DNA of 44,017 nt, taken from the NCBI GenBank assembly GCA_964394405.1, contig CAYMVY010000001.1, forward strand, positions 299,219-343,235, written 5' to 3'. The position numbers were made by a program, and so were the translations under genes. Shown here piece after piece: positions 14,532 to 36,978 of this stretch (position 1 is the stretch's first letter; each line of letters opens with the position of its first letter). The stretch is from an uncultured Gammaproteobacteria bacterium. Its GTDB lineage: Bacteria > Patescibacteriota > Patescibacteriia > Magasanikbacterales > UBA922. Under the pieces are notes generated by a model that had not been told where the DNA came from, did no database searches, and worked only from the letters and a program-made list of their open reading frames with translations.

Positions 14532-14535
14532 AGGT

Positions 14536-22822: not shown

Positions 22823-22825
22823 ATT

Positions 22826-23848
22826 ATGAAAAATTACTTTTATTTTAAAGATAAAAAGCAAGTCGTTCCGGTTTTGGACGAGGAAAAAAATAAGCAGGCA
22901 AAAAGTAAACTTGCTAATATCCTTAAAACCAAAAAGGAATTAATCCCTGATCGTTTTATAGAAAGATGGTCAGAGGTTGCTTTATATAATCCGGGTGGTG
23001 ATGTTGAGAAAGCAAACGCAATTTTAATCAATCCGGAAGATGGTGCCTATGATCTGTCAAATCCTTTAAACGATATGACAGGCAAAGAATGGGTAAAATT
23101 TAGTTGTAGTTGGTTCATTTTCAATGCACTCCAAAAAGACTTAAAAGAAGAGCGAGAAATATCTCCAAATACACAAGATCATCCGGCCACATTCTCTCCA
23201 ACGATGATTGAAGATTTTATAAAGTTTTTCACTAAAAAGGGAGAGGCTGTACTCGACCCATTTTGTGGCATCGGAAGCACTATGGTTGCTTGCAAGCGAA
23301 CAGGTAGGATTGGTTATGGAATAGAACTCAATAAAAAATACTACGATTTATCACTGAAACGAACGCCGGAATTCAAAAAAAGTATTTTCAATAAGAATGC
23401 AAAGGATATTAAAAAGTTGAATTTGCCGAAGATAGATTTTTCCATCTCATCACCACCATATTGGGATGTATTAAATAGAAGTACTAAGGATTTCAAAAAG
23501 GATAGAACAAAAGACGGTCTTGATGTTAACTATTCAGAAGCTGAAGAAGATTTGGGCAACATAGACAATTATGATTTGTTCTTAGAGAAATTAGCAGATA
23601 TATACTTTGATATTTTTGACTTACTCAAAGACGGTGGATACCTTGTTGTGATCGTAAAAAATATCAAGAAAGAAGGTAAAATGTACCCTTTGGCTTGGGA
23701 CATTGCTCGTATCCTCTCAAAGAAATATATGCTTAAGGACGAGAAGCTTTGGATACAGGATAAAGTTGGTCTTGCACCTTATGGATATCCATCAGCATGG
23801 GCAAGTAATATCCTGCATCATTATTGCTTAATATTCCAAAAAAAATAG
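22826..23848 (+). CDS. DNA methyltransferase, N4/N6 (PF01555-like) motifs in permuted order (motif I before SPPY).
   Basis: HPATFSPTMIEDFIKFFTKKGEAVLDPFCGIGST (motif I region) is followed ~55 aa later by DFSISSPPYWD (SPPY at 23450-23461). Confidence 0.85.
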   Translation: MKNYFYFKDKKQVVPVLDEEKNKQAKSKLANILKTKKELIPDRFIERWSEVALYNPGGDVEKANAILINPEDGAYDLSNPLNDMTGKEWVKFSCSWFIFNALQKDLKEEREISPNTQDHPATFSPTMIEDFIKFFTKKGEAVLDPFCGIGSTMVACKRTGRIGYGIELNKKYYDLSLKRTPEFKKSIFNKNAKDIKKLNLPKIDFSISSPPYWDVLNRSTKDFKKDRTKDGLDVNYSEAEEDLGNIDNYDLFLEKLADIYFDIFDLLKDGGYLVVIVKNIKKEGKMYPLAWDIARILSKKYMLKDEKLWIQDKVGLAPYGYPSAWASNILHHYCLIFQKK

Positions 23849-23849
23849 T

Positions 23850-25475
23850 ATGGCATTAAAGATTTCACAAATTGTAAATAATTTAATCGATGTAAGCGAT
23901 TTTAAACATGATCGCAAGTATTCTCGTGTTGCCAAACTTCACAAATACTGGTCAAGAAAGCCGTGGTTTGTGATTGATCAATATGTTCAGAAATATTCTA
24001 AAGAAAATCACCTTGTATTAGATCCTTTCTGCGGAAGTGGAATTATTGGGTTACAGTCCGTATTAGCAAACAGAAATTTTATCGGATACGATCTTAATCC
24101 TTTTGCTGTCTTTTTAGCAAAAACTTCTTTGCAAGTTGGTTATAACGAGACTTCTTTCGAAGATGACTTTTTAGCGATTGAGCAAGCTGTTCGGGAGAAA
24201 ATAATGCCTCTTTATGCGACCAAAGACAAATATATCCTATATACCATACTTGGAAAGAAAAACAGTAAAGATTACAACGCTGTAATTTCTGATCGTAACT
24301 TTCAAAACAAACAAAAAGTCAGTCTCTCAAAAAAAGAGCTAGAACCAACTGTAAAATTTCCGAAAAACCTCAAATATCCTGATAAAGACTTCCCAGAAAA
24401 ATTTTACAAAGACCGCTTTTCTTACAAGGGCGTGAAGCGAGTATCTGATATGTTCACGAATAGAAATATCCTTGCTTTGGCATTACTTCACACAGCCATC
24501 AACGAGCTACCTCTTAAGAACAGAGATTTATTTATGCTCGCTTTCACAAACACTCTATTGCATGTAAGTAAGTTGAAAGCCGAGAATGTTCGTCCTCTTG
24601 GTGTAAATAATTTCTGGATTCCAGATGATTTTATCGAAGAGAATGTTTGGTGGAGATTTGTCGATCGTGTACAAAATGTAAAAATGGCAAAAGAGGTTAT
24701 TTCAGAAAGGGCATCAAATAATAAAATTTCGAAGCCAACATCTAAAGTCTATAACAAGTCATCTCTCAAGATGTCTGAGATCAAGAATAATAGTGTGGAT
24801 TATTTGATTACCGATCCGCCCTATGGAGACACCATTCAGTATTCAGAACTTTCTTTTATTTGGAATTGTTGGCTTGAGAAAGACTTTGATATTGAAAAAG
24901 AGGTTATCATTAACCCGGTTCAAAACAAGGGAGTAACCGAGTATTATAACCAGCTCGTGTCTTTTATCGGCGAAGCAAAAAGAGTCTTAAAAAAAGACGC
25001 CTATTTCACGCTTGCTTTTCATAATAAGGACTTAAAAATTTGGATAAGCCTAGCAGAGCTAATCAGGGATCATGGCATGGAATTGGTAGACATATCAGCA
25101 TTCGATACCTTTGGTAGTCCATATAATAAAAATTGGGCAAAGTTCTCCCCGAAGTCCGACTTTTATGTAACTTTTATCAACCGAAACAAAAAAGTTGCCC
25201 CTCCTACTTCCAAGAAAGTGTACCCTCATCAGATTGCTAGTGAAATAATGAAATATCTCGGCAAGAATAATGGAAAACTTTTTAATTTGAATAAGGCTTA
25301 TGATGTCTTTGTCGGTGTAGTAATCAGTAAAATATTTGACGGTTCGCAGGTGGCCGAACACGAGCGGTTAAGTATAGAAAACATCACGAGTCTTTTCCGG
25401 GAATCGGCACCGCCTACCCAGAATCAAATCAAGAGCGGTGTACAGCAAAAATTACTTAACTTCGAACACATTTAA
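23850..25475 (+). CDS. DNA methyltransferase, second copy, with a long insert (putative target-recognition domain) between motif I and DPPY.
   Basis: LHKYWSRKPWFVIDQYVQKYSKENHLVLDPFCGSGIIG lies near the N-terminus, and YLITDPPYGD sits at aa ~322 (DPPY at 24813-24824). Confidence 0.85.
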   Translation: MALKISQIVNNLIDVSDFKHDRKYSRVAKLHKYWSRKPWFVIDQYVQKYSKENHLVLDPFCGSGIIGLQSVLANRNFIGYDLNPFAVFLAKTSLQVGYNETSFEDDFLAIEQAVREKIMPLYATKDKYILYTILGKKNSKDYNAVISDRNFQNKQKVSLSKKELEPTVKFPKNLKYPDKDFPEKFYKDRFSYKGVKRVSDMFTNRNILALALLHTAINELPLKNRDLFMLAFTNTLLHVSKLKAENVRPLGVNNFWIPDDFIEENVWWRFVDRVQNVKMAKEVISERASNNKISKPTSKVYNKSSLKMSEIKNNSVDYLITDPPYGDTIQYSELSFIWNCWLEKDFDIEKEVIINPVQNKGVTEYYNQLVSFIGEAKRVLKKDAYFTLAFHNKDLKIWISLAELIRDHGMELVDISAFDTFGSPYNKNWAKFSPKSDFYVTFINRNKKVAPPTSKKVYPHQIASEIMKYLGKNNGKLFNLNKAYDVFVGVVISKIFDGSQVAEHERLSIENITSLFRESAPPTQNQIKSGVQQKLLNFEHI

Positions 25476-25479
25476 ACAT

Positions 25480-26565
25480 ATGGAAATATACAAAGAAAAC
25501 TTTTTCAAAATATTCAAAGCCAATTTCAATTTTGAGATTGTCGAGACAGACTTGGGTACTGCCATAAAAATGCCAGCTAAGGAGGCTTTTATCTATAGCA
25601 GTGTCACTGGTGCCGGATATCTTGAGAACCCTATTTACCCATTTACTCCCAAGGGGCTCATGAAGCTTTTTTATAATGCCTTTAATTATAAATTCGTTTC
25701 CGGAATTTTTGACAACGGTGTTTTGAAAAATACACCCTTCATTCTTTCCCGTGCAAAACAATATCTTTTTGAAGGAGATAAATTTATAGTTCCAATCGAG
25801 TTTGAATCGGAAGAAAAATTGAACGATATGCTCAAGGCGAAGTTTGATTCTCTAAAAAATAGAGAGAATTACATAATTCAAAGAATTGAGACAAGCAAAC
25901 AAGGCAACGGCATGGAACCTTTTATGGAGTATTTGGCTGGTGAGTATTTCAGACACCTCGGCTTCATTGTTGAGAATCAGATTCCACTTGCTCACGCAAT
26001 AGGATCGCCTGATTTTGCCGGTTATGGTCTTAGCGAAATAATTACGAAGATAAGTAATTACGGTTATTTACCAATAGAGGGCTTTCATATGATTGAGCTA
26101 GCTCTTATAAGAAATTTCAAAAAGGATATTAAAACAAAAGCCGGTCATGTGACACATGATTTTATCGTAGGAGAAGCAAAAACTGGAACCGTCGTTATGA
26201 CTAAACAATTAGAGAAGTATCTCAATACCGGTTTGTTTGATCAGGGTTTTGAAATTTGCCCAACAAAGGCCAAACCGTCAAAAGATTACTTTGGTCTGAT
26301 ATCCCTTGATTCTGACTATAAAATAAAAATTACACTCCCCGAAGCCAAGTATGATGCAAAAAATCCATTATCTCGTGAGGAGTACACGACTTGGCTGGGA
26401 AATTATATAAAATTCTACCTGATTGCAAACTTCACGAACGATGAACTCAAACAGTTTCATCTTGAAGTCAGGGGCGAGGAAATCAATAAAGAGTCGGACC
26501 TCGTTAGTTTCGTTCTTGGGTTAGAAACTGAGACGATCTTGGAGAAAATTAAATCATTAAAATAA
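25480..26565 (+). CDS. Orphan protein; candidate PD-ExK nuclease (possible restriction subunit).
   Basis: The ATG at 25480 lies 4 nt after the methyltransferase stop (the track start at 25438 is GTG). It contains EPFMEYLAGEYFRHLGFIV ... GSPDFAGYG ... DFIVGEAKTG. The 54-residue D-to-ExK spacing is long, so the call is tentative. Confidence 0.4.
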   Translation: MEIYKENFFKIFKANFNFEIVETDLGTAIKMPAKEAFIYSSVTGAGYLENPIYPFTPKGLMKLFYNAFNYKFVSGIFDNGVLKNTPFILSRAKQYLFEGDKFIVPIEFESEEKLNDMLKAKFDSLKNRENYIIQRIETSKQGNGMEPFMEYLAGEYFRHLGFIVENQIPLAHAIGSPDFAGYGLSEIITKISNYGYLPIEGFHMIELALIRNFKKDIKTKAGHVTHDFIVGEAKTGTVVMTKQLEKYLNTGLFDQGFEICPTKAKPSKDYFGLISLDSDYKIKITLPEAKYDAKNPLSREEYTTWLGNYIKFYLIANFTNDELKQFHLEVRGEEINKESDLVSFVLGLETETILEKIKSLK

Positions 26566-26566
26566 T

Positions 26567-27580
26567 ATGGCATACTCAAGCGACGAAATAGTAAAAAGAG
26601 AAATCATAGATCAAATAGGCTTTGAGACCAATGGCATTAAATTACGCATATTTCCTCAAAGCAGTAATGAAGATCAAAAGCCCTTCTCTGAGGGAGGATT
26701 AACTTTCGGGTTTAAAGATGTGTCGTATGGATCATGCGACGCCGCATGGTTTGTTGATGAAGTCTGGAAAGACGGGCTTAATGGAAAAGAAATTGATAAA
26801 AAACCAATAATTGCCCTTGAGGGAACAGATGCTTTGAATAGGAATTCTGGTGGTAACGCTTTATATCAAAGATTTCATCACGCACTTGGTGCAGTTAAAA
26901 ACGGGGTTGTCGGAATTTATTACCTTAAGAAAGGAAAAACAAAAATACAGCCAGATCTTTTTGGCATGGCTTATTTTGCTTCAAAGGTTGAAAAAGGAAA
27001 ATATTTGATAATCGATGACCTGTCGGTTGTTAAGGATTTACTTGATCGTTATGGAGACAAAAAGGAATTTGATTCCTATATCGAAGCGTACTTGGAAAAA
27101 ATGCATGATATTTTTATTAATAAATTCAATGATTCTTATGGCGGTGACTGGGAAAAGTTTGCGGAAAAAAGATCAACCATCATAAGAGATGGTTATGTCA
27201 TTAAATACGCCGGACGCATGAGAAGAAATTTTACAGATGGATCACAAAGAGCTGGGCATATTGCTGTAGGCGAAATGTTTTTAACTAAGTATTATTTTTA
27301 CAATAAAAAGTTTTACTATCTTTTCCCAAAGATGACGCATGCGGACTTGGCCATACTGGATCACAGCAAAACTACTGATAAAGAGTGGTTTCTTTTAAGA
27401 AACGAGCCAAATGTGGAAATAAAGACGATGGATGACTTGGTCGGACTTAGCCCATCAATTAAAGCCTCTTTGTTGGGTATTCAAGATACTCCATTAAAGG
27501 GAGATGCTATTCGTCTTTTCAATAAATGCGTTGAGACTATTGTTGAGGGGCTCAAGAACGGTAAAATTAAATTAAATTAA
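26567..27580 (+). CDS. Orphan protein of unknown function (possible second nuclease or specificity subunit).
   Basis: A 337-aa ORF with an ATG 1 nt after the upstream stop. The only weak acidic candidate motif is CDAAWFVDE ... PIIALEGTD. I recognise no family. Confidence 0.35.
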   Translation: MAYSSDEIVKREIIDQIGFETNGIKLRIFPQSSNEDQKPFSEGGLTFGFKDVSYGSCDAAWFVDEVWKDGLNGKEIDKKPIIALEGTDALNRNSGGNALYQRFHHALGAVKNGVVGIYYLKKGKTKIQPDLFGMAYFASKVEKGKYLIIDDLSVVKDLLDRYGDKKEFDSYIEAYLEKMHDIFINKFNDSYGGDWEKFAEKRSTIIRDGYVIKYAGRMRRNFTDGSQRAGHIAVGEMFLTKYYFYNKKFYYLFPKMTHADLAILDHSKTTDKEWFLLRNEPNVEIKTMDDLVGLSPSIKASLLGIQDTPLKGDAIRLFNKCVETIVEGLKNGKIKLN

Positions 27581-27584
27581 ATTT

Positions 27585-30467
27585 ATGAGCAACTTTCCTT
27601 ATCCAAAAGGGTCGACTTGGAGAAAATGGGATTTACAAACCCAGACTATTTTGGACGACAATTACATCCAGCTTGCTGATTACTCAGAGGAATTAAAAAA
27701 GACTAATCCAGCAGGTTGGCAACAATACATCACAAAAGTCGGAGGTGAAGCCAACGCACTGCTTTATGATTCAAAAGCTTATTTTACTGACACGAAAATT
27801 GATAAAAAAGAACGATGTGTTAACCATGTAAGGAATTTTTTTGCTTTTATCGATGTTTTTAATCCAGAGTTAGATTGTATTGGTATCACTGACCATAATT
27901 ATTTTGACGACTGTCTGCTCGATTCTTTTATAGAATATTCTAAGCAGTCACGATGTAAAATTATTCCGGGAGTTGAGATTAATTGTCAGGGTATCCACAT
28001 GTTATTATTTTTCCCAGACAAACTCTATCAAAAAGAAACATTTTCTGCCGGTATTCAAGCTTTCTTGATAAAATTTGGCATCAATAACAGAACGAACGGT
28101 AGTGGTGTTCTTACGACAACGAGTACGGACATCAAAGAAATTATTGACGAGGTTAAGAAAAACGGTGGCATTATAATCTATCCCCACTGTAATAGTAATA
28201 ATGGTCTTTTTCAGGAACGCACAGCAACCGACCGGACACATTTAGCTGATATATTTAATCATCAAAAAGTAAATCTTTTACAATCTCAACACAATCAATC
28301 ATCGGTCGTTATATCAGACTATATAAAGACAAACAGTACACTTACATCCAAATTCTGCTCGCATATAAGTTCAGACGCAAGGTCATTGCGTGATCTTGGT
28401 AAAGCCGATCAGGATGGTAATTTCTTATGGATAAAAGCTGACCCGACATTTGAGGGTTTAAAGCAGATTGTTTTTGAGCCAGAACAGCGTATTTTTGTCG
28501 GACCTCAAAAACCGGGCGAGAAAAAATCTTATTTTGTTATTGATAAGGTTCGATTCTTGGACAATACCGGTGATGTAAAATTTGCGAGTGATCCTATTGA
28601 GATTAATCAAAATCTTACAACCATTATCGGAGGCAAATCGACAGGAAAATCGTTACTCTTGTATTACATGGCAAAAACGATTGATCGCCAAGAGGTACAG
28701 AGCAGGACTTCCGACAGTGGTGTGCCAGTAAAATATGACTTTGATGCTTCTGTTGATTTTAATTTTGAAGTCACATGGAAGGATGGCCAACACACTTTGT
28801 TAAGGACGCCAGAAGGCACCGCAGAAGACCACTCAAAAGAACGGAAGATTCTATATATTCCGCAGAGATACCTCAATACACTCTCAGAGGCAAACATAAA
28901 AAGTCGCGAGGCATTAAACGAATTCGTTTTGAATGTTATCTTGCAAGACCTAACGGTTAAAGAAAAATACGAGGAGACTGTCAGAGAAATCAAGACCGAA
29001 GTTAAAGCAATACCTACAGCAATCGGTGAATTATTTTCTGATCGTGAGGAAATCAAAAAAACAGAAGACGAATTAAAACAGACCGGTGATGAAAAAGGTA
29101 TTGAGAATTATATTAAAACACTTCAGAAACAGGCTGATGAAATAAAGGTTAAGTCTGGCTTATCAGAAGAGCAGTTAAAACAATATGAGGAGTTGGTTTC
29201 AAAAGAAAAAGAGATAAATGTTCAGATATCCAATCTTGAGCAAGATAAAAAAACGATCAAGAGCTTAAATTCAAATCTGGCTTCGCAAATTGATGGATTA
29301 AAATCGACCATTGATGAAAATGAGGAGTACCTTAATGATGCCGACATAAAAACAAAATTCAAGACAGAATTTAAGGTAGTTGACTCGTTTGCCCCTGGAT
29401 TAAAATCAGCAAGTACAAATTTGATTACTGCAATTGATGGCAAACTAAAAATCCATAATGCCGAGCTGGTTAAAATAAAAGCTGATCTTTCACCATTAAT
29501 GGCAAAGGTCAAACTACAATCCGAGCTTCAGGAAAAAACAGATGCTATTAAGAAAGAACAGCAAAAACTTAATGAGATTGCTATAAAGCGAAATAATCTA
29601 AAGACCAAAAAAGCTTCTTATAAAAAGAAGTCAGATGCTGTTATAGAGTCGTACAAACAAATCGTTCTCAAATATGAGAGTTTACGAAATGAATTCAAAA
29701 AATTTGAGAGCAAATTTGGCGAGATTACTCTTGGAGTACACATCAGTTTTAACGATGATGCGTTTAACTCAAATGTCGTTAAGGAATATATCAACAAGAA
29801 TGATCTTAAGCGAGTCATTGTCGAAGCGGAATGGGGCGATGAGTTTATCTATAAGTATGATCCGACAAAACATTTAGCCAACATCACAACCGTTTTTGAA
29901 GGATTGGTTGGAGGTACTATAAATACCGTTAAGAACCGCTTAGCAAAAGATGCCGTAGCCAAGCTTCTTGAAAATTATTTTTATCTTGATTTCAAAATTT
30001 TCTACAAAAATGATTCTCTCGACAAAATGTCGCCTGGTAAAAAGGGATTAGTATTGCTTCAATTGCTTATCAATTTGAGCGATGGAGAATGGCCAATCCT
30101 TCTGGATCAGCCAGAGGATGATCTCGACAATCGATCGGTCTACGATGATCTGGTGGCATTTCTAAAAAATAAAAAACTTCAAAGACAAATAATTATCGTT
30201 ACGCACAACCCCAACCTTGTTGTTGGTGCTGATGCTGAAGAGACCGTTGTCTCAAATCAATCCGGCCAAGAAGTTGGGCGTGACAATAAAAAATTCCGGT
30301 TTGAATATATATCAGGTGCTTTAGAAAATACATTTGAATTAGATCCTGCCCAAGAATCAGCAATCTTGTATAGAAAAGGCATTAGACAGCATGTATGTGA
30401 AATTCTTGAAGGTGGACAAGAGGCATTCCAAAAACGAGAACAAAAATACAGTTTTCCTAATAATTAA
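27585..30467 (+). CDS. PHP-domain + SMC/ABC-type ATPase with a long coiled-coil insertion (PplA-like/TrlF-like architecture, from memory).
   Basis: PHP-type blocks in the N-terminal part: WDLQTQT, GITDHNYF, IPGVEINCQGIHMLLF, IIIYPHCN, SSDARSLRDLG. Walker A is GGKSTGKS (28629-28652). A heptad-rich region spans aa ~470-730. The signature-like motif is MSPGKKGLVLLQLL, Walker B is ILLDQPEDDLD (30096-30128), and the H-loop is IIIVTHNPN. Confidence 0.75.
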   Translation: MSNFPYPKGSTWRKWDLQTQTILDDNYIQLADYSEELKKTNPAGWQQYITKVGGEANALLYDSKAYFTDTKIDKKERCVNHVRNFFAFIDVFNPELDCIGITDHNYFDDCLLDSFIEYSKQSRCKIIPGVEINCQGIHMLLFFPDKLYQKETFSAGIQAFLIKFGINNRTNGSGVLTTTSTDIKEIIDEVKKNGGIIIYPHCNSNNGLFQERTATDRTHLADIFNHQKVNLLQSQHNQSSVVISDYIKTNSTLTSKFCSHISSDARSLRDLGKADQDGNFLWIKADPTFEGLKQIVFEPEQRIFVGPQKPGEKKSYFVIDKVRFLDNTGDVKFASDPIEINQNLTTIIGGKSTGKSLLLYYMAKTIDRQEVQSRTSDSGVPVKYDFDASVDFNFEVTWKDGQHTLLRTPEGTAEDHSKERKILYIPQRYLNTLSEANIKSREALNEFVLNVILQDLTVKEKYEETVREIKTEVKAIPTAIGELFSDREEIKKTEDELKQTGDEKGIENYIKTLQKQADEIKVKSGLSEEQLKQYEELVSKEKEINVQISNLEQDKKTIKSLNSNLASQIDGLKSTIDENEEYLNDADIKTKFKTEFKVVDSFAPGLKSASTNLITAIDGKLKIHNAELVKIKADLSPLMAKVKLQSELQEKTDAIKKEQQKLNEIAIKRNNLKTKKASYKKKSDAVIESYKQIVLKYESLRNEFKKFESKFGEITLGVHISFNDDAFNSNVVKEYINKNDLKRVIVEAEWGDEFIYKYDPTKHLANITTVFEGLVGGTINTVKNRLAKDAVAKLLENYFYLDFKIFYKNDSLDKMSPGKKGLVLLQLLINLSDGEWPILLDQPEDDLDNRSVYDDLVAFLKNKKLQRQIIIVTHNPNLVVGADAEETVVSNQSGQEVGRDNKKFRFEYISGALENTFELDPAQESAILYRKGIRQHVCEILEGGQEAFQKREQKYSFPNN

Positions 30468-30491
30468 AGTTGTGACGAAGGTCTAAATAAA

Positions 30492-30520
30492 TTGTCTTTT
30501 GGGGTTTAATTTGATATAAT
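30492..30520 (+). promoter_or_regulatory. Sigma70-like promoter upstream of the rnk-like operon.
   Basis: TTGTCT (30492-30497), a 17-nt spacer, then TATAAT (30515-30520) preceded by TG-n (extended -10 type). Confidence 0.55.
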
Positions 30521-30584
30521 GAACTTAATATGTTTCTGCATAATATATACAAAAATACCACACTTTCTTTTCCTACTGTCACTT

Positions 30585-30623
30585 AGCCAGTTGTTTTAGT
30601 GCATGAGCAAAAAACAACCGGCT
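30585..30623 (+). promoter_or_regulatory. Upstream hairpin that competes with the terminator (anti-terminator candidate).
   Basis: agccagttgtttt (30585-30597) pairs with aaaacaaccggct (30611-30623) at 12 of 13 positions. The 3' arm is also the 5' arm of the terminator. Confidence 0.45.
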
Positions 30624-30640
30624 AAAACGGTTGTTTTTTT
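30611..30640 (+). terminator. Intrinsic terminator or attenuator.
   Basis: aacaaccg (30613-30620), loop gctaaaa, cggttgtt (30628-30635), then a T-run to 30640. It is preceded by an A-run. Confidence 0.65.
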
Positions 30641-30653
30641 AAATTTAGAACCT

Positions 30654-31049
30654 ATGACCAACATATACATTACAAAAAATGATCACAAAAAATTGATCAA
30701 GTTGATAAATGAAAAATTGCCGGATAACGACAGTACTCGTTCTTTGCTTTCGGAACTTAAAAGAGCGGAGATTGTCGAACCGGAAAAGATACCTGCCAAT
30801 GTCATTACCATGAATTCCTTGGTGAATTTTACAGATGTAGATTCGGGAACGGAACTTGAGTATTGGTTAGTTTTCCCCGAGGATGCTGACATTGCTCAAC
30901 GCAAGATATCAGTGATTTCTCCGGTGGGGTGTGCTTTATTGGGGTATCGCGTTGGTGATATCATTAATCTTAAAACACCGAGTGGAGAGAAAAAAATCAA
31001 AGTCGAAAAAATATTGCACCAACCCGAAGCCGAAGGCAACTATGAATAA
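30654..31049 (+). CDS. rnk: Rnk-like regulator (GreA/GreB C-terminal-domain family, regulator of nucleoside diphosphate kinase).
   Basis: It aligns by eye with E. coli Rnk as I remember it (VITMNSLVNF..., ISVISPVGCALLGYRVGDII..., VEKILHQPEAEGNYE versus [39 protein letters not shown]). I prefer the start at 30654; the ATG at 30603 would translate through the terminator hairpin. Confidence 0.85.
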   Translation: MTNIYITKNDHKKLIKLINEKLPDNDSTRSLLSELKRAEIVEPEKIPANVITMNSLVNFTDVDSGTELEYWLVFPEDADIAQRKISVISPVGCALLGYRVGDIINLKTPSGEKKIKVEKILHQPEAEGNYE

Positions 31050-31698
31050 TATAAAAAACAAAAATAAAATAAGCACGACAATCCGCTTTTTAATATTGTC
31101 CGATTTTTTTCTTTTTTTTGCCGTCGGTTTATTGGCACCAATATTCGCCGTCTTTGTCCTTGACAATATAGATAACAAAATAGAAGTTATCGGTTTTGCC
31201 GTGTCTTGCTACTGGTTGACCAGAGTGATTATGGTTGTTCCATTTAGCCGGCTAATGGATAAAATCAGGGGTGAAATTGACGAATATTCGTTCATGATCA
31301 TTGGCACTTTTTTAATATCGATCATTCCCTTATTTTATATCATGTCATCCGCCCCTTGGCATATTTATGTATTGCAGATAGTGAACGGAATTGCTAACTC
31401 TATGGCAGTTCCGGCTTGGCGTATTCTCTTTACCAATCACATAGATAAAAAAATTGTAGGTCTTGAATGGTCGTTAGAAGATGTCGGGGTCGGCATCGCT
31501 ACGGCCTCCAGTGCCACTATCGGTGCTTTTATCGCCAGCAAGCTGGGTTTTAACGCCTTGTTCGGAATTATTTCGTTTTTCGGTTTGATAGCCACAATAA
31601 TTCTCATTGTTTTGAGCAAGAAAAAAGGAATGATTCTAAGCAAATTTATCATCAATAAAGCGGAAAAAGCACCGCTCAAGTTGGATACTTTTAAATAA
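31042..31698 (+). CDS. Half-size (about six predicted TM helices) MFS-like membrane protein.
   Basis: The ATG at 31042 overlaps the rnk-like stop (tATGAataa). It encodes 218 aa with about six hydrophobic segments. A normal MFS transporter has 12. Confidence 0.55.
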   Translation: MNNIKNKNKISTTIRFLILSDFFLFFAVGLLAPIFAVFVLDNIDNKIEVIGFAVSCYWLTRVIMVVPFSRLMDKIRGEIDEYSFMIIGTFLISIIPLFYIMSSAPWHIYVLQIVNGIANSMAVPAWRILFTNHIDKKIVGLEWSLEDVGVGIATASSATIGAFIASKLGFNALFGIISFFGLIATIILIVLSKKKGMILSKFIINKAEKAPLKLDTFK

Positions 31699-31702
31699 TT
31701 TT

Positions 31703-32632
31703 ATGATCAACAATCTATTCATTTTCATAGTCGCTCTGTTAATGGTTATAAAGGGTGCGACAATGGCCACAAAATACTCAGCCAAATTGGCAGAGAGTTT
31801 TAATATCTCGAAATATATTGTGGGATTTATTATCGTTGCGTTTATTTCAATCCTGCCCGAGACATTAATTTCAATTAACTCTGCCATCAGTGGCATACCT
31901 GAGTTTGGCCTTGGTACATTATTTGGCTCAAATATTGCTGACCTATCTTTGATATTTGCAATCCTGATCATATATGCAGGCCGGGGTATGAAAATAGAAA
32001 GTAAAGTTTTGAAAAATGTACGACTATATCCTTTCTTTTTGCTTTTACCATTATTATTCGGTTTAAACGGACACTATTCAAGAATTGAAGGTGTATTCTT
32101 AATTATGGCAGGTATAATTTTTTATTATCTGGTATTTAAAAACGGAATTGATGTATCTGCAAATTTACGGAATGGCAACGGAAAATATAAAAGTCTCTTA
32201 TTTTTGATCATCTCGATGGCCCTGCTATTGGTTGGCTCGCATTTTACCGTAACTTCAGCTACTGCTCTGGCTCATGCTCTAAAAATAACACCTATTCTTA
32301 TCGGTATGCTTGTTGTAAGTTTGGGTACGACTATGCCAGAATTATTTTTCTCTTTAAAGGCTGTAAAACGAAAAGATGATGGATTGGCGGTTGGCGATAT
32401 TATGGGATCGGTTTTGGCAGATGCTACTATCGTGGTTGGTATTTTGGCCACAATCAGTCCGTTTTTCTTTCCAGTTAAAATTGTTTATATTACGGGGGTC
32501 TTTATGGCCATGTCCTCATTCATACTGCTTAAATTCATGAAAACAGGAAAGTTAATTACGAAAAATGAAGGGTATTTGCTTTTACTTTTTTGGGTTGTTT
32601 ATGTTGTTGTTGAATTTTTAGCAAATAGATAG
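31703..32632 (+). CDS. CaCA-family cation/Ca2+ antiporter (YrbG-like).
   Basis: Two alpha-repeat signatures are present, GTLFGSNIADLSLIFAI and GDIMGSVLADATIVVGI, with about 10 hydrophobic segments. Confidence 0.8.
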   Translation: MINNLFIFIVALLMVIKGATMATKYSAKLAESFNISKYIVGFIIVAFISILPETLISINSAISGIPEFGLGTLFGSNIADLSLIFAILIIYAGRGMKIESKVLKNVRLYPFFLLLPLLFGLNGHYSRIEGVFLIMAGIIFYYLVFKNGIDVSANLRNGNGKYKSLLFLIISMALLLVGSHFTVTSATALAHALKITPILIGMLVVSLGTTMPELFFSLKAVKRKDDGLAVGDIMGSVLADATIVVGILATISPFFFPVKIVYITGVFMAMSSFILLKFMKTGKLITKNEGYLLLLFWVVYVVVEFLANR

Positions 32633-32722
32633 CAATGGGCGTTAGAAAGTTCGCCCAAGGGGCAAACAAACGGCAAAAAAGGGGCTCAAAAAGGGCTCCT
32701 TTTGCTTTATATCGTCACTGAG

Positions 32723-33117: not shown

Positions 33118-33684
33118 CTAAGTATCCTCGACTGCTACCCATTTCTGTCCCGTCCACATGTGCTTCTTACCGTCTATAATTTTTATCTTTACCCCTCCAA
33201 TGGACATTTTCTCGGCTAACATCGACCTTAATTCTTTGAAATTTTTAATTTGCTCGTAATTCTTTTTATTTAAATCTTTTTCTTTATTCTTGTTAGTAAG
33301 TCCATTGGACCGATCCCACCGGTCTGTATGACCGAACTGCCGGTCAGGCTGACCGATCTGTTTTAAGTTCGGTCTATCTGACCTATCTACTTTCAACAGG
33401 TAATACACATTGGAAAATTTACGGCGTTTCTTATTTATCAGTCCCAGCTTGATCATCTGTCGGATACCTCTTTGCACGCTGGAAACGCTCGAACCGATTC
33501 TGTCAGCAATAAGCTTGTGGGATGGAAAACAAAAACCCTCCTGATTAGCGTGTTCAGCCAGGCAATTATAAATAGCGATGCCGATTGGTTTAATTTTGCT
33601 TCCATACTCATCGAGAAGTACTTTGCTAATCCAGAACCAATCGCCATTTCTTAAATCTCTTACTTTTATTTTATCGTCCGACAT
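33118..33684 (-). CDS. Winged-helix/HTH protein, replication-initiator-like.
   Basis: FPSHKLIADRIGSSVSSVQRGIRQMIKLGLINKKRR is typical of phage or plasmid replication-type wHTH proteins. The gene sits in the early region and contains internal iteron-like DNA repeats. Confidence 0.55.
   Translation of the reverse strand: MSDDKIKVRDLRNGDWFWISKVLLDEYGSKIKPIGIAIYNCLAEHANQEGFCFPSHKLIADRIGSSVSSVQRGIRQMIKLGLINKKRRKFSNVYYLLKVDRSDRPNLKQIGQPDRQFGHTDRWDRSNGLTNKNKEKDLNKKNYEQIKNFKELRSMLAEKMSIGGVKIKIIDGKKHMWTGQKWVAVEDT
33308..33374. repeat. Three tandem inverted-repeat units GACCGA-n-(C/T)CGGTC, spaced 21-22 bp (iteron/origin candidate), inside the wHTH gene.
   Basis: The units are gaccgatcccaccggtc (33308-33324), gaccgaactgccggtc (33330-33345) and gaccgatctgttttaagttcggtc (33351-33374). 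Confidence 0.5.
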
Positions 33685-33775
33685 GGCCGTGAATAAAAAG
33701 GCGTGACCGACCTACAGATCGCGCCTTATTCCTCCCTTCACGCCTGGCGTCATTGAGGGGAGAGTAAGGTGCCAT

Positions 33776-33988
33776 CTACCACTCACGGGACTTGGGCAGA
33801 GCTCGGTCGATGTTGTCCATTGCTCTACAAAAGTCATGCCGAATTCTTGGGTTCTCTAATTCTCGGATTGTGAAATTACTCAGCAAGCTCTCCCTCCTCG
33901 CCAAAAGTTCTCTCCGGGTTAATGGCTTGCGAGTCATCCGTTTCCAGATCCTCTGAATTATTCTTTTGATTAGAATTCTCGTTGTCAT
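33776..33988 (-). CDS. Hypothetical small basic protein (overlaps the next ORF in another frame).
   Basis: ATG start, Arg-rich. It shares 113 nt with 33876-34154, so at least one boundary is uncertain. Confidence 0.3.
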   Translation of the reverse strand: MTTRILIKRIIQRIWKRMTRKPLTRRELLARRESLLSNFTIRELENPRIRHDFCRAMDNIDRALPKSREW

Positions 33989-34154
33989 ACTTTTTAATGT
34001 GATCTAAATGCTCTAACAGCATGAATGCCATGCGTTTAAAGCCAGCATGGACACGCCAAACTTCTTGCTTACTCGGTTCTCGGCCGAGCACCTCGGACAA
34101 GGCGTTTTTGGTAAGCTCAATGAGAGCTTCCTCATCCTTTGTTGGTTTGGACAT
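33876..34154 (-). CDS. Hypothetical early protein.
   Basis: A 92-aa ORF with an ATG start. It is preceded by an operator copy at 34213-34230. Confidence 0.45.
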   Translation of the reverse strand: MSKPTKDEEALIELTKNALSEVLGREPSKQEVWRVHAGFKRMAFMLLEHLDHIKKYDNENSNQKNNSEDLETDDSQAINPERTFGEEGELAE

Positions 34155-34212
34155 GTGATTTGGTTCATAAGAGTGACCTCACACTTTTACTGACCCTCAC
34201 ACACCTTTTCCA

Positions 34213-34230
34213 TTAAGCGTTTTTGCTTAA
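34213..34230. promoter_or_regulatory. Operator copy 4 (18-bp palindrome).
   Basis: ttaagcgtttttgcttaa, located between the cro-like stop and the next early gene. Confidence 0.55.
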
Positions 34231-34233
34231 CTT

Positions 34234-34440
34234 CTAAGGCAAAAAAATATCCTCAACTTTTACCCCCAACGCTAGGGCAATTCTCTGGGCGGTTTCCAAA
34301 TTCGGCCGTTTTCTTCCGGTCTCATATCGGCTGATCGCTGTGTTATGTTTAAAGCCGAGAATACGGGCTAGTTTGTATTGCGTTAGTCCTTTCTCGATTC
34401 TAATATCCCTCAGTCGAATGTTGGTTGGTGTTTTTTTCAT
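34234..34440 (-). CDS. Cro-like XRE-family HTH regulator.
   Basis: A 68-aa protein, LRDIRIEKGLTQYKLARILGFKHNTAISRYETGRKRPNLETAQRIALALGV, divergent from the CI-like gene. Confidence 0.85.
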   Translation of the reverse strand: MKKTPTNIRLRDIRIEKGLTQYKLARILGFKHNTAISRYETGRKRPNLETAQRIALALGVKVEDIFLP

Positions 34441-34467
34441 AGTTTGATAAATTAGACCTCTATAGTC

Positions 34468-34496
34468 ATATTAAGCAATTTTGCTTAATTCGTCAA
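34468..34496 (-). promoter_or_regulatory. Promoter of the cro-like/early operon.
   Basis: The minus strand reads TTGACG (34496-34491), a 17-nt spacer, then TAATAT (34473-34468). Operator 1 fills the spacer. Confidence 0.55.
34471..34488. promoter_or_regulatory. Operator copy 1 (perfect 18-bp palindrome).
   Basis: ttaagcaa tt ttgcttaa. Confidence 0.65.
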
Positions 34497-34511
34497 TTAC
34501 TGTCCTTGTGG

Positions 34512-34529
34512 ATAAGCATATTTGCTTAA
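34512..34529. promoter_or_regulatory. Operator copy 2 (imperfect).
   Basis: ataagcatatttgcttaa. It overlaps the -35 of the CI-like promoter. Confidence 0.55.
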
Positions 34530-34550
34530 TCTTTACATATTTGCTATATT
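34522..34550 (+). promoter_or_regulatory. Promoter of the CI-like repressor gene.
   Basis: TTGCTT (34522-34527), a 17-nt spacer, then TATATT (34545-34550). Confidence 0.45.
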
Positions 34551-34577
34551 ATACTAAGATGTAATTAGGATTATTAA

Positions 34578-34585
34578 TTAAGCAA
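34578..34585. promoter_or_regulatory. Operator half-site.
   Basis: ttaagcaa, 12 nt upstream of the CI-like ATG. Confidence 0.3.
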
Positions 34586-34596
34586 ATAACAAAAAT

Positions 34597-35319
34597 ATGT
34601 CATTTGGCTCATATCTAAAAAAACAAAGAGAAACCAATCAGTGGACAGCCAAGGATATTGCAGATCGCCTTGGCTTTTCTGCCAGTTATGTCAGCCAGCT
34701 GGAAAACGACACTCGACTCCCTTCGCAAAAGCAGTTGAGTCTTTTGGCGAGGGCTTACGAGACTTCGGAGGATGAAATAAAAAAACAGTGGACCGAAGCG
34801 AAGATCCACAAGGTTAGTCTTTCCTCTGATTATAAATTTAATATCAAAGAGGCTGGCGAGAAGCGTGTCGAAGAGATGACTCACAAATTGGAGGCTGGTT
34901 TGGAGGAATTGAAAAAGACAATCACAGCCGATGAGGTTGCTCATTACAAGATGCCACTGTTCAACACGATTCCGGTGGACGATCTTGATCTACACCTCAA
35001 ACATGCGGAGGAATTTATTTTTATTCCAAAAAATGGAATCGTGCGTGATCACCGTATATTCGGTATCAGAGTTTCTGTCACTCCATTTCCGGAGGCAGGT
35101 ATAATCACTGGCGACCTGATTATGCTTGATGCGGATATTGAGATTAATGATGGAGACATCGTGGCATTGAATACACCAGACGGCATGATCATGACTTATT
35201 ATAAAAAGCGTGGTAACTCTTTAGAAATCACAACGAGTCAGCCAGGCGTTAAGAAGACCTACCCTGTTGAAGGGGTCAAGCCGATAGGTCGGTTGATTTA
35301 TCACATAAAAAAATACTAA
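34597..35319 (+). CDS. CI-like repressor: XRE HTH + S24 (LexA-like) peptidase domain.
   Basis: The N-terminus is WTAKDIADRLGFSASYVSQLENDTRLPS. The C-terminus is AGIITGDLIMLDADIEINDGDIVAL ... YYKKRG. The usual G-D-S-M block reads R-V-S-V-T-P here. Confidence 0.8.
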   Translation: MSFGSYLKKQRETNQWTAKDIADRLGFSASYVSQLENDTRLPSQKQLSLLARAYETSEDEIKKQWTEAKIHKVSLSSDYKFNIKEAGEKRVEEMTHKLEAGLEELKKTITADEVAHYKMPLFNTIPVDDLDLHLKHAEEFIFIPKNGIVRDHRIFGIRVSVTPFPEAGIITGDLIMLDADIEINDGDIVALNTPDGMIMTYYKKRGNSLEITTSQPGVKKTYPVEGVKPIGRLIYHIKKY

Positions 35320-35322
35320 CCA

Positions 35323-35352
35323 CAGGGCTCGCCAAGAGCCCTGCTGTTTTTT
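35323..35352 (+). terminator. Intrinsic terminator between the repressor and integrase genes.
   Basis: cagggctc, loop gccaa, gagccctg, then ctgtttttt. It is an 8-bp GC-rich stem. Confidence 0.75.
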
Positions 35353-35364
35353 ATAACAAAAAGT

Positions 35365-36978
<1,614 letters not shown>

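Follow-up and report, generated by a model that had tools for sequence, protein, structure and literature searches.

A TrlF-family PHP–ATPase with a variant metal site in an exchangeable slot behind a prophage-borne restriction-modification-like cassette

Ppl (NF042955, PADLOC PDLC02208), which carries PHP and ATPase in a single polypeptide, is said to have been presented as a single-gene defence by Gao et al. in 2020. The restriction-modification (R-M)-linked ABC-ATPase anticodon nucleases PrrC and RloC, and PARIS AriA/AriB, pair or fuse an ABC-type ATPase with a nuclease and lie within R-M operons or at their ends, prrC being set within a type I R-M operon. In Rad50/SbcC, SMC, MukB and JetC (Wadjet), the ABC head is split and carries a long antiparallel coiled coil. 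The TrlF family (NF045780), whose members join a PHP-like N-domain to a Walker A, coiled coil and Walker B arrangement, takes its name from the trlF gene in the temperature restriction locus of Photorhabdus laumondii, in which temperature-tolerance mutations fell in trlG and none in trlF (PMC7554251). The family is uncharacterised, and its members are likely anti-phage proteins. According to a one-sentence review summary, Ppl is an exonuclease that acts 3'-5' on ssDNA and is gated by the binding of NTPs and by the 3'-OH ends of DNA (PMC12904381).

Here, we analyzed a protein with this domain arrangement, encoded within a 44,017-nt stretch of DNA from an uncultured bacterium (hereafter the window), with the following features in window coordinates.

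27585–30467, + strand: TrlF-family coding sequence, 960 aa plus stop, start codon ATG (ORF list and translation; NCBIfam NF045780)
27585–28514, + strand: N-terminal PHP-like (beta/alpha) barrel domain, aa 1–310, closing with the family-wide WIKADPTFEGLKQ..E..R linker motif (AlphaFold2, Foldseek, invariant residues)
27630–27644, + strand: variant PHP motif I, D16-L-Q18-T-Q20 (WDLQTQT; canonical D-x-H-x-H), M-alpha ligands (column counts)
27660–27860, + strand: helical insertion, aa 26–92, spacing motifs I and II (alignment blocks; helices 34–92 in the model)
27888–27896, + strand: PHP motif II, T102-D103-H104 (TDHN) (column counts)
27975–27998, + strand: PHP motif III, E131 (VEI) to H138 (IHM), bridging Glu and M-beta His (conservation)
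28185–28187, + strand: PHP motif IV, H201 (PHC), M-beta ligand (invariant in the sub-branch; just after strand 196–199)
28374–28382, + strand: variant PHP motif V, D264-A-R266 (SDAR; canonical D-x-H) (column counts)
28629–28652, + strand: Walker A GGKSTGKS, G349–S356, with K355 (conservation)
28863–28865, + strand: Q-loop Gln427 (YIPQ; P426 and Q427 invariant)
28896–29717, + strand: antiparallel coiled-coil arm, aa 438–711, apex at about 581–585 (AlphaFold2 helices, Foldseek, consensus sequence)
30027–30047, + strand: ABC signature-like motif M815-S-P-G-K-K-G821 (M815, S816, P817, G818 and K819 invariant)
30096–30122, + strand: Walker B I838-LLDQPEDD846, with D841, Q842 and E844 (LLDQPE[DG]D or LLDQPDDD in 111/111)
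30201–30209, + strand: H-loop T873-H874-N875 (invariant)

The protein, for which 1853 homologues were found, is a genuine TrlF family member: with NF045780 (cut-off 350) it reaches 489.6 bits, aa 88–955 aligning with profile positions 34–943, which bears out the family name given in the initial annotation. The open reading frame, the domain order and every residue quoted in that annotation, including the altered ligands (Q-x-Q, D-x-R) and the kept H104, E131, H138 and H201, agree in position with the ORF list and translation. The protein is not Ppl, the other name mentioned there. PADLOC matched it to Ppl and PDC-M49A, but its 106.8 bits with NF042955 lie far below the Ppl cut-off of 1000: the alignment is limited to the C-terminal ATPase lobe and tail (aa 809–951 here; PADLOC E 1e-18), neither the N-domain nor the coiled coil aligns with the Ppl model, and the metal-ligand sets differ. 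Similarity to the uncharacterised Spaf_1101 family AAA-like ATPase (NF045781; 154.9 bits, under the cut-off of 475) and PADLOC candidate PDC-M49A (E 2e-11 over aa 93–143) is partial, covering the region of PHP motifs II and III and the N-terminal lobe of the ATPase, and their profile lengths differ (836 and 674–681 aa). With PrrC/RloC and PARIS only generic ABC motifs are shared; the effector is a PHP domain in TrlF as opposed to an anticodon-nuclease or TOPRIM domain, and there is no evidence that TrlF targets tRNA or senses anti-restriction proteins.

Pfam PHP gave no match to this protein even at E<1, yet the proposed PHP fold is supported by the AlphaFold2 model, by Foldseek and by weak Pfam PHP matches in 8/38 family members (best E 0.0057). 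In this model (pLDDT 84 over the whole protein, 92–97 at aa 10–200, mostly 79–93 beyond and lower near aa 210–220), the PHP motifs lie at or just past the C-terminal ends of successive strands (12–19, 96–101, 125–134, 137–142, 196–199 and 256–261), and the N-terminus matches the PHP phosphoesterases 3e38_B (E 4e-5), 3o0f and 3e0f (5e-5; 6e-4), with probability 1.0 each. The ligand equivalences used below rest on the order of the motifs, on secondary structure and on weak profile alignments rather than on superposed coordinates; the family profile aligned motifs I, II, III and V with PsfC, a PHP enzyme, and motif I with YcdX, in both cases with non-significant E. Residues W282, G291, Q294, E298 and R302 of the linker region are invariant in the family alignment. 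Within the family, the N-domain falls into a separate sub-branch with Q-x-Q, TDHN, PHC and D-x-R, whereas other branches carry (Q/H)-x-H, TDY, D-x-H and, in place of the motif IV residue, Gly. A further difference is the helical insertion (~65 aa), which the TDY/SDxH branch lacks or has in a much shorter form.

Compared with the canonical PHP ligands, 3/9 are replaced (Q18/Q20 for His-x-His and R266 for the last His). E131 and D264 are invariant in 111/111 sequences, and position 104 is His in 80 of the 111 aligned homologues and Tyr in the remainder, the sub-branch of 80 being defined partly by H104 itself. Within this sub-branch, where N-domain identity falls to 31% and invariant columns make up just 6% of the N-domain, D24, E131, H138, H201 and D264 are among the invariant positions, and position 266 is Arg in 76/80 and Lys in 4/80. 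Reduction to 50%-identity cluster representatives (n=40) left the same picture, with Q-x-Q in 32/40, Arg or Lys at 266 in 39/40, and H104, E131, H138, H201 and D264 in 40/40. Because Q-x-Q…D-x-R recurs across the 40 clusters at 50% identity, the variant metal site is not a product of decay; it is conserved but rewired, and the label 'partly inactivated', suggested initially, is too simple for a pattern that characterises the class and is conserved over deep divergence. In this lineage E131, H138 and H201 make up an intact M-beta site, the M-alpha site has Gln18/Gln20 in place of His-x-His, and Arg266 replaces the third-metal His, a remodelled ligand set from which one or two metals are predicted, not three.

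It is conceivable that such a domain has lost phosphoesterase activity and acts as a sensor that binds nucleotides or DNA ends, or as a structural platform, in which case killing or exclusion would be due to a partner nuclease or to the ATPase clamping DNA. Besides the three replaced ligands, this reading can draw on the occurrence of Q, H, A and C at positions 18 and 20, and on polymerase precedents. The variant PHP domain of the alpha subunit of E. coli DNA polymerase III, whose ligand set is likewise incomplete (five ligands changed), has no exonuclease activity, and the guanidinium of the Arg at its ligand position 9, which there replaces His exactly as in TrlF, fills the place of a metal (PMC3666897); in G. 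kaustophilus PolC, a single changed ligand goes with the loss of exonuclease activity (PMC5636811). By analogy, these incomplete sites argue against catalysis by the TrlF PHP site. A precedent for ligand sensing is provided by Ppl, in which NTPs are said, in the review summary, to inhibit by binding the PHP domain (PMC12904381). However, TrlF has 3/9 ligands changed compared to 5/9 in E. coli; its other six positions are strictly conserved, among few invariant columns despite deep divergence, whereas truly relaxed Pol III variants conserve ligand positions less than neighbouring residues. Unlike the Arg/His of the E. coli enzyme, ligand positions 1 and 2 are Gln here, kept and not randomly replaced, the invariant D264 is the equivalent of the DnaE1 Asp proposed to activate the nucleophilic water, and the intact E131/H138/H201 site together with the Arg could allow one- or two-metal catalysis. 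We therefore hold a non-catalytic PHP domain to be a tentative reading, with the balance leaning somewhat against it.

In the C-terminal part, the top Foldseek matches are SMC, MukB, JetC and Rad50 heads (E 1e-10 to 1e-5), and AlphaFold2 helices 438–580 and 586–711 split the head, in line with the predicted coiled coil and with the PHP plus split ABC/SMC-like architecture first proposed. The protein thus joins a phosphoesterase-like domain of PHP fold to an ABC ATPase resembling SMC and Rad50, with a coiled coil of ~270 aa interrupting the ATPase head. Walker A residues G349, G350, S352, T353, G354, K355 and S356 are invariant, and the LLDQPE Walker B and the C-terminal tail are shared with a TrlF protein of a Klebsiella plasmid. 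In 111/111 homologues, the Walker B Asp is followed by an invariant Gln (Q842) where the canonical catalytic Glu is absent, suggesting a slow, switch-like ATPase and not a motor. In addition to this Gln, TrlF differs from Rad50, SMC, MukB and JetC in its short arm (~140 aa per strand), its nuclease-like domain in cis, the lack of a kleisin, Mre11 or JetD partner gene, and the lack of a Zn hook or hinge domain; at the apex the protein sequence contains no CxxC or Cys hook, and Y582-L-N-D is conserved in the consensus sequence.

The upstream genes and the segment to which TrlF belongs are as follows.

21217–22287, + strand: Fic/DOC-wHTH protein (SoFic-like), 5' accessory gene of the operon (profile matches)
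22295–22822, + strand: RadC/JAB protein, 5' accessory gene of the operon (profile matches)
22826–23848, + strand: M1, N6/N4 DNA methyltransferase, 340 aa (Pfam N6_N4_Mtase)
23850–25475, + strand: M2, N6/N4 DNA methyltransferase, 541 aa (Pfam N6_N4_Mtase)
25480–26565, + strand: R1, 361-aa PD-(D/E)XK nuclease candidate with E150, P177-D178 and E232-x-K234 (invariant residues and structure)
26567–27580, + strand: R2, 337 aa, a conserved partner of R1 (strictly syntenic with it in >75 loci)
27592–32634, + strand: variable prophage segment with TrlF, Rnk, an MFS fragment and a Na/Ca exchanger (blastn against locus L130)

M1 and M2 (22826–25475) match N6_N4_Mtase at E 7e-24 and 1e-18, and MTase_II and PglX-like in PADLOC. 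The ATG of R1 (25480) comes after the M2 stop; its invariant residues map to helix 146–158, the start of strand 179–182 and strand 228–233, and its Foldseek match is weak (3dnx, E 0.013). R2 gave no match in Pfam, NCBIfam or the PDB. With two methyltransferases, a PD-(D/E)XK candidate and a conserved partner, M1-M2-R1-R2 is a self-sufficient, prophage-borne R-M-like cassette, conserved as a unit in >80 loci, most of them without TrlF and many with the Fic/DOC-wHTH and RadC/JAB genes. TrlF is, as had been noted, the terminal gene of this methyltransferase operon, 4 nt behind the R2 stop, and is probably co-transcribed and translationally coupled with the cassette.

Comparison with locus L130, which carries a ~93%-identical operon, placed a DNA-level break at the TrlF start codon: blastn similarity (92.7% over window positions 21071–27591) ends at 27592 and returns at 32635, and L130 has AAA_13, PDDEXK_1 and other genes in the same segment. 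Behind the cassette, the slot is occupied by PHP-ATPases in 11 loci, from at least three sub-lineages, by AAA_13 proteins in at least five, by OLD-like or STAND-like ATPases in others, or by none. The island has a low GC content and is flanked by the capsid, portal, terminase, repressor and serine integrase genes of a prophage, and none of the window's operon partners recurs beside TrlF in loci L002–L040. TrlF is thus an autonomous, horizontally exchanged module whose place at the 3' end of the prophage-borne cassette is a variable accessory slot. The suggestion that it is the nuclease effector of the locus becomes unlikely, because the cassette carries its own candidate nuclease and mostly exists without TrlF, and AAA_13 replaces TrlF in the 93%-identical operon.

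This setting also bears on the Photorhabdus model, whose locus gave the family its name and underlies the equivalog-level HMM match, and in which TrlF would act within a trlR-trlF-trlG system restricting growth upon stress or temperature. In contrast to that locus, no TrlG/TrlR partner was found for this TrlF, which sits at the end of the prophage cassette, and a Pfam scan of the 19 ORFs at 11.9–35.3 kb contained no AlbA_2/HATPase_c_4 (TrlG-like) protein; moreover, the screen placed no mutation in trlF, whose role its authors left open (PMC7554251). We consider growth arrest of this type very improbable here.

At 19/38 informative loci, TrlF homologues directly adjoin unrelated R-M systems (types I, II, III and IIG; raw count), with gaps of <=80 nt in 17 of these loci and of <=16 nt or an overlap in 13 of the 17. 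Close homologues are therefore not always solitary, and some linkage survives; it is with R-M systems as a class, not with these particular partner genes, and could be ordinary defence-island clustering. The other half lie away from any R-M system, among them integrative-element copies and the Klebsiella plasmid copy that was inspected, which is flanked by an ATP-binding protein and UvrD-like helicase gene pair (Gabija-like in our reading) on one side and an Abi family gene on the other. TrlF-like genes occur in 1094 plasmid records, mostly of conjugative plasmids; together with the neighbours of the Klebsiella copy and the PADLOC matches, this speaks for a defence role. The family is patchily distributed over CPR bacteria, Poribacteria, Bdellovibrionales, Fusobacterium and plasmids. 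A housekeeping role in DNA repair or chromosome maintenance, with the fused PHP nuclease taking the place of Mre11/SbcD beside a Rad50/SbcC-like ATPase, would accord with heads resembling those of Rad50, SMC, RecN and RecF and with the 3'-5' exonuclease activity of PolX and DnaE1 PHP domains. We deem this role highly unlikely given the patchy distribution, the low-GC island within a prophage, the replacement by other ATPases between near-identical operons, the R-M, recombinase and Abi neighbours, and the missing Zn hook.

Alternatively, TrlF may be functionally coupled to the adjoining restriction system, either as a second-stage exonuclease or clamp processing restriction-made DNA ends, or as a PrrC/RloC/PARIS-like guard firing when phage anti-restriction proteins block R-M. 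Its operonic position, the R-M neighbours at half of the loci and the independent recruitment of at least three PHP-ATPase sub-lineages behind the same cassette fit such a partnership, as does its location within type I operons (hsdM-hsdS-TrlF-hsdR in L006 and L007, hsdM-TrlF-hsdS-…-hsdR in L132), the arrangement in which prrC is found. At L042, L050 and L130 the same slot holds ATPases of AAA_13, which we take to be the Pfam family of PrrC/RloC-type proteins. Against coupling, half of the homologues lack adjacent R-M, the cassette is a unit without TrlF in most loci, and unrelated ATPases also occupy the slot. A guard physically reading unrelated type I, II, III and IIG enzymes is implausible, and with such a range of partners only their shared product, DNA ends, could account for the association; Ppl is reported in the review summary to require endonuclease-made 3'-OH ends (PMC12904381). 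Overall, dependence on the adjoining R-M system seems unlikely to us.

Taken together, we favor, with some reservation, a reading in which TrlF is an autonomous defence module in the variable R-M accessory slot of a prophage, possibly acting on restriction-generated DNA ends. By extension from SMC-family DNA sensors and from the single review sentence on Ppl (PMC12904381), a coiled-coil dimer would recognize foreign DNA, probably DNA ends, through nucleotide-dependent head engagement, and this recognition would gate the PHP site such that the DNA is attacked or held. Cleavage by the co-encoded R-M system would furnish such ends, which may be why TrlF homologues are repeatedly found beside unrelated R-M types.

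The open reading frame at 27585..30467 (+) is real: it opens with an ATG, encodes 960 aa and has its start codon 4 nt past the stop of the preceding gene. The residues quoted for it in the initial annotation were all recovered at their numbers, namely D16/Q18/Q20 (WDLQTQT), H104 (TDHN), E131, H138, H201 and D264/R266 (SDAR) in the PHP-like N-domain, and K355 (GGKSTGKS), SPGKKG 816-821, D841/E844 (ILLDQPEDD) and THN 873-875 in the ATPase. Whole-protein HMM scoring bears out the suggested TrlF resemblance (NCBIfam NF045780, 489.6 bits versus a curated equivalog cut-off of 350 bits, E 2.9e-146, aa 88-955 on profile positions 34-943). Identity with Ppl did not hold, as NF042955 reached 106.8 bits versus a cut-off of 1000 and aligned the C-terminal lobe alone (aa 809-951). 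The Spaf_1101 family (NF045781) was likewise rejected at 154.9 bits, below its cut-off of 475, and PADLOC returned partial matches to Ppl and to the candidate PDC-M49A. The combination of PHP and ATPase parts is already known from Ppl and TrlF, and the protein falls in a family that is already known and named.

The name TrlF stems from the 'temperature restriction locus' trlR-trlF-trlG of Photorhabdus laumondii, where mutations conferring temperature tolerance lie in trlG and none in trlF, and where TrlF is annotated as a histidinol-phosphatase-like protein and nothing more (PMC7554251). Because no trlF mutations mapped and the annotation stops at this likeness, the family is to be regarded as named, yet functionally uncharacterised. 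Pfam scanning of 19 ORFs (11.9 to 35.3 kb) found neither trlG-type domains (AlbA_2 plus HATPase_c_4) nor trlR, and both partners are likewise missing beside the plasmid-borne TrlF that we inspected; the partnership is therefore probably not defining for the protein family. A search for promoters and terminators near the gene returned no signal beyond that of shuffled sequence. Relatives of TrlF were not found in IMG/VR with narrow search patterns, and the phage GenBank collection contained distant matches only.

The window is a prophage that carries the TrlF operon as cargo, with the packaging module on one side and the lysogeny module on the other:

3399-20257, - strand: structural and packaging genes (endolysin-like, tail fibre, SU10-type major capsid, portal, large terminase, HTH/TerS-like), then a ParB_N-like gene and a D12/Dam methyltransferase
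21217-22822, co-directional with TrlF: Fic/DOC with a C-terminal wHTH, and RadC/JAB, at the operon head
22826-27580, co-directional with TrlF: the cassette of M1 (N6_N4 methyltransferase, 340 aa), M2 (N6_N4 methyltransferase, 541 aa), R1 (361 aa, counted from the ATG at 25480) and R2 (337 aa)
27585-30467, + strand: TrlF
30603-32632: Rnk/GreA-like regulator, 255-aa MFS ORF and Na/Ca exchanger
33118-36978: HTH_36, cI-like repressor and large serine integrase

The region from 20 to 33 kb forms a low-GC island (35-40% GC versus about 44%), and Fic-wHTH (SoFic-like), RadC/JAB, M1, M2, R1, R2 and TrlF run through it as one co-directional string. The genes that follow 3' of TrlF within the island (Rnk, the MFS ORF and the Na/Ca exchanger) are host-like and odd as prophage cargo; the MFS ORF overlaps Rnk, is too short for a full transporter and is probably a fragment. 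At the operon head, the Fic/DOC protein is SoFic-like by PADLOC (E 1e-43), yet it scores 53 bits versus the NCBIfam SoFic cut-off of 550. The pair of Fic and RadC/JAB accompanies the cassette in many loci, whatever the 3' gene, and a Fic gene also lies inside a type I operon that contains TrlF (L132). A near-identical public locus (L001) has 94-98% DNA identity along the stretch in common; its contig, 547 kb long, carries the label of a gammaproteobacterial MAG.

The cassette itself retains strict synteny across more than 80 loci from metagenomes, genomes and viruses, at identities as low as about 50%, and is preceded in the inspected loci sometimes by Fic-RadC and sometimes by a small HTH gene, possibly encoding a controller protein. 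A few loci (L113, L122 and L126) have its genes in a permuted order. The two methyltransferases are clear members of the N6_N4 class, and the candidate for the cognate endonuclease is R1, whose family comprises 355 'hypothetical' proteins. Its invariant residues E150, P177-D178 and E232-x-K234 are predicted to lie on one helix and two strands in an order typical of PD-(D/E)XK nucleases; since the Foldseek match is weak (3dnx, E 0.013), R1 is kept as a nuclease candidate only. PDB sequence searches with R1 and R2 returned no matches, BLASTP between the two revealed no paralogy, and R2 has no recognisable fold or family; both are named 'hypothetical' in every source that names them. The cassette constitutes an unannotated R-M-like family.

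The position 3' of R2 is highly variable between loci. It is occupied by a close TrlF in L056 (85% identity), by other PHP-ATPases in nine further loci (22-28% identity), by AAA_13 ATPases in L042, L043, L083, L084, L050 and L130, and elsewhere by OLD- or AAA_21-like ATPases, by STAND-like proteins of 1400-1580 aa or by a 468-aa family, or it is empty. The comparison with L130 is the most direct, as its DNA from Fic to R2 is 92.7% identical to window positions 21071-27591. The similarity breaks off at the TrlF start codon, give or take a few bases, and returns at window position 32635, which delimits a replaceable segment of about 5 kb between conserved prophage flanks (window 27592-32634 versus L130 7254-12345). 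In the window this segment holds TrlF, Rnk, the MFS fragment and the Na/Ca exchanger, in L130 an 887-aa AAA_13 ATPase, PDDEXK_1, a 179-aa ORF and Peptidase_S49, and in L056 TrlF is followed by just about 1.1 kb before the right flank. Because of this break at the TrlF start and the variable gene 3' of R2, TrlF is an exchangeable add-on and not an integral effector of the cassette. The earlier proposal of TrlF as the nuclease effector of the operon is not supported, as the slot is variable, a nuclease candidate (R1) is part of the cassette and L130 carries AAA_13 instead. The near-identical prophage operons, differing solely in their terminal gene (TrlF, AAA_13 or other ATPases), represent a natural swap.

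The window's partner genes were looked for next to TrlF homologues elsewhere and were found beside none of them in 39 other genome loci, and a fixed multi-gene system was rejected on this ground. A different R-M system lies directly upstream of or around TrlF in 17 of the 34 informative loci, with gaps of ≤80 nt in 17/17 and of ≤16 nt or overlapping genes in 13/17:

Type II: L002, N6_N4 methyltransferase and MvaI/BcnI
Type II: L011, L014 and L016, HEAT-methyltransferase and CfrBI
Type II: L015, two methyltransferases and a DpnII-like protein
Type II: L010, L013 and L025, EcoRI-like methyltransferase and GmrSD_N-HNH
Type I: L006 and L007, hsdM-hsdS-TrlF-hsdR
Type I: L039, hsdR-hsdM-hsdS-TrlF
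Type-I-like by clustering: L008 and L020
Type III-like: L018 and L023
Methyltransferase and SNF2 helicase: L005
Type IIG/ISP-like: L029

Four additional loci comprise hsdM-TrlF-hsdS-x-Fic-hsdR (L132), TrlF-Vsr-HNH with a convergent Dcm methylase gene (L135) and solitary TrlF copies on integrative or conjugative elements (L133 and L134). With these included, 19 of 38 informative loci are R-M-linked, and the homologues are accordingly not always solitary genes. As an uncontrolled raw count, the association between TrlF and R-M systems is striking, and a literature search on the linkage of TrlF or PHP-SMC proteins to R-M systems found nothing relevant. As far as the searchable literature goes, both this operonic linkage and the exchange of TrlF for other ATPases in a prophage R-M slot appear to be new. 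Large serine recombinase genes lie near TrlF in at least 8 loci, suggesting carriage on serine-integrase elements, as in the window. Such genes were seen within a few kb of TrlF homologues or of the R-M cassette in L002, L004, L011, L017, L021, L031, L038, L042-L044, L134 and L135.

On enterobacterial plasmids, TrlF is present in 1094 records. The inspected plasmid TrlF is solitary and lies between an Abi family gene and a gene pair for an ATP-binding protein and a UvrD-like helicase, which by our reading is Gabija-like. In the Klebsiella plasmid NZ_CP091060.1 (L041 4452-8214), the annotated TrlF has 886 aa and starts with 'MGATDY…'. As this copy is devoid of PHP motif I and follows an IS5 transposase gene situated 134 bp upstream, the widespread plasmid TrlF may be N-terminally truncated.

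Assignment of the N-domain to the PHP fold is argued from structure and from family-level evidence, because Pfam PHP (PF02811) is silent on TrlF itself, with no match even at E<1; weak Pfam PHP matches occur in 8/38 family members. An AlphaFold2 model built from a 111-sequence alignment has a mean pLDDT of 84, rising to 92-97 over aa 10-200 of the N-domain, and the Foldseek (PDB) matches of this domain are PHP-type metal-dependent phosphoesterases (3e38_B, E 4e-5; 3o0f, 5e-5; 3e0f, 6e-4; all probability 1.0). In the model, the N-domain takes the form of a distorted (beta/alpha)7 barrel of the PHP superfamily, and the motifs fall at or just past the C-terminal ends of strands 12-19, 96-101, 125-134, 137-142, 196-199 and 256-261, the placement predicted for a PHP barrel. 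A Ppl structure was not among the Foldseek PDB matches. PsfC, a PHP enzyme, aligns to the family profile at motifs I, II, III and V, and YcdX does so at motif I, with non-significant E-values (0.6-1.4), and PDB sequence searches with full-family and N-domain profiles likewise gave non-significant matches only. Between PHP strands 1 and 2, a confidently modelled insertion of about 65 aa with four to five helices (aa 26-92; 27660-27860) is specific to the sub-branch of this protein.

PHP enzymes follow a nine-ligand scheme of H, H, D/H, H, E, H, C/H, D/N and H (PMC3666897, PMC5636811). In this order TrlF presents Q18, Q20, D24(/D25), H104, E131, H138, H201, D264 and R266, where equivalence was judged by the order of the motifs, the placement of the strands and a weak alignment of profiles rather than by superposition. 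Six ligands are thus kept (D24 or D25, H104, E131, H138, H201 and D264) and three are changed (Q18, Q20 and R266), so that the altered metal site first noted in the sequence is confirmed in its Q-x-Q/D-x-R form. Under the ligand-to-metal assignment that we take to apply from PHP hydrolase structures, the M-beta site would be intact (E131, H138 and H201), the M-alpha site would keep E131 and D264 with two Gln where His-x-His is expected, and the third site would keep D24 and H104 with its last His turned into Arg. Table 1 of PMC3666897 gives a matching assignment.

The TDHN…D-x-(R/K) form is found in 80/111 of the closest homologues. Within this sub-branch, N-domain identity drops to 31% and 6% of N-domain columns are invariant, and these include D24, E131, H138, H201 and D264; H104 is likewise invariant, but served as a criterion for membership of the group. 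Of the 80 sequences, 71 have Q and 8 have H at position 18; at position 20 there are 65 with Q, 11 with H and 4 with A, and at position 266 there are 76 with R and 4 with K. An exhaustive N-domain-only search yielded 45 clusters (50% identity) at E≤1e-30, the full-length matches being nearly all proteins of 900-1040 aa. Among the 40 representatives examined of these 45 clusters, positions 18/20 read Q-x-Q in 32, H-x-Q in 3, H-x-H in 2 and Q-x-C in 3, position 266 is R or K in 39, and H104, E131, H138, H201 and D264 are kept in 40/40. Other TrlF branches bear a different incomplete set, (Q/H)-x-H, TDY, Q/N138 with H140, G201 and D-x-H, and all nine ligands occur together in no sampled TrlF branch. 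Because Q-x-Q/D-x-R recurs at deep divergence with the other ligands invariant, the sequence pattern is that of a conserved PHP subclass and not of lineage-specific decay. Such a deeply conserved subclass appears to be without precedent in the literature that could be searched.

The evidence on whether this subclass is catalytic is divided. A precedent for inactivity is provided by PolC, which has no exonuclease activity with one altered ligand (PMC5636811), and by E. coli Pol III, equally devoid of it with five altered ligands, including an Arg at position 9 whose guanidinium takes the place of a metal (PMC3666897). [quoted passage not shown] The Q-x-Q/D-x-R site would be either a new metal stoichiometry for PHP hydrolases or the mark of a ligand-sensing PHP domain.

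Turning to the ATPase, Walker A GGKSTGKS, Q-loop Q427, the signature-like MSPGKKG, Walker B D841 and H-loop H874 follow one another in this order and are all invariant in the 111-sequence alignment. The motif order and the coiled-coil insertion between the lobes are those of a predicted ABC/SMC-type ATPase; Foldseek matches the region after about aa 310 to SMC, MukB, JetC, Rad50, RecN and RecF heads with coiled coils (E 1e-10 to 1e-4), and Pfam SMC_N is sub-threshold (25.3 versus 40 bits). In the model, two helices (438-580 and 586-711) make up the coiled coil, which has a conserved Y-L-N-D at its apex. This motif (Y582-L-N-D…K589, aa ~576-589; 29310-29350) sits where Rad50 has its CxxC hook and could be a dimerisation or DNA-contact element. 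Identity with Rad50/SbcC itself was rejected, as the apex has no CxxC and aa 575-590 no Cys, the operon has no Mre11/SbcD-like gene, and Rad50 and SMC models gave trace scores under their cut-offs (Rad50 NCBIfam, 9.9-13.5 bits).

ABC ATPases normally have their catalytic Glu directly behind the Walker B Asp, and exchange of this Glu to Gln traps ABC dimers. In TrlF (LLDQPEDD, aa 838-846; 30096-30122), D841 is followed by Q842 in 111/111 sequences, so that the catalytic Glu is missing from its usual position and E844 lies two residues beyond Q842. The Gln is also present in the Klebsiella plasmid TrlF, and one type of N-domain is found fused to two kinds of ATPase, with DQPE-type and with canonical DEPE-type Walker B. 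As Gln is invariant at the catalytic-Glu position, the sequence suggests that TrlF is a slow, switch-like NTPase. This reading fits Ppl, which, according to a review (PMC12904381), is inhibited by NTP binding until nucleotide pools fall. A native D-Q Walker B appears to be new within the searchable literature.

From its defence-island and R-M neighbourhoods, its mobility and its PADLOC similarity, we infer that TrlF is a defence module. By analogy with SMC-family sensors and Ppl, it would probably dimerise on DNA through its heads and coiled coils, with the nucleotide state probably gating the PHP site. Since the R-M partners are mutually unrelated enzymes, any coupling to them would more plausibly run through what they all generate, DNA ends, than through PrrC-type guarding by protein-protein contact. 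Both coupled variants stay in competition with plain co-residence in a defence hotspot. A more far-reaching joint reading, which we regard as rather unlikely, is that TrlF-type PHP-SMC-like ATPases are dedicated second-stage restriction modules that would load on DNA ends produced by the co-transcribed enzyme and destroy or immobilise the fragments, with Q-x-Q/D-x-R being an undescribed, catalytically competent one-/two-metal-plus-arginine PHP site and the D-Q Walker B a nucleotide-level sensor rather than a motor.

Overall, the invariant Gln predicts a switch-like ATPase in a family with no assigned biochemical function, common on conjugative plasmids of enterobacteria and abundant among bacteria of the candidate phyla radiation. 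The natural swap and the recurrent R-M adjacency suggest that restriction cassettes are followed by a general accessory slot, and point to a possible synergy between R-M systems and TrlF, and the second-stage restriction module, if true, would explain the promiscuous operonic linkage of TrlF to type I, II, III and IIG systems.
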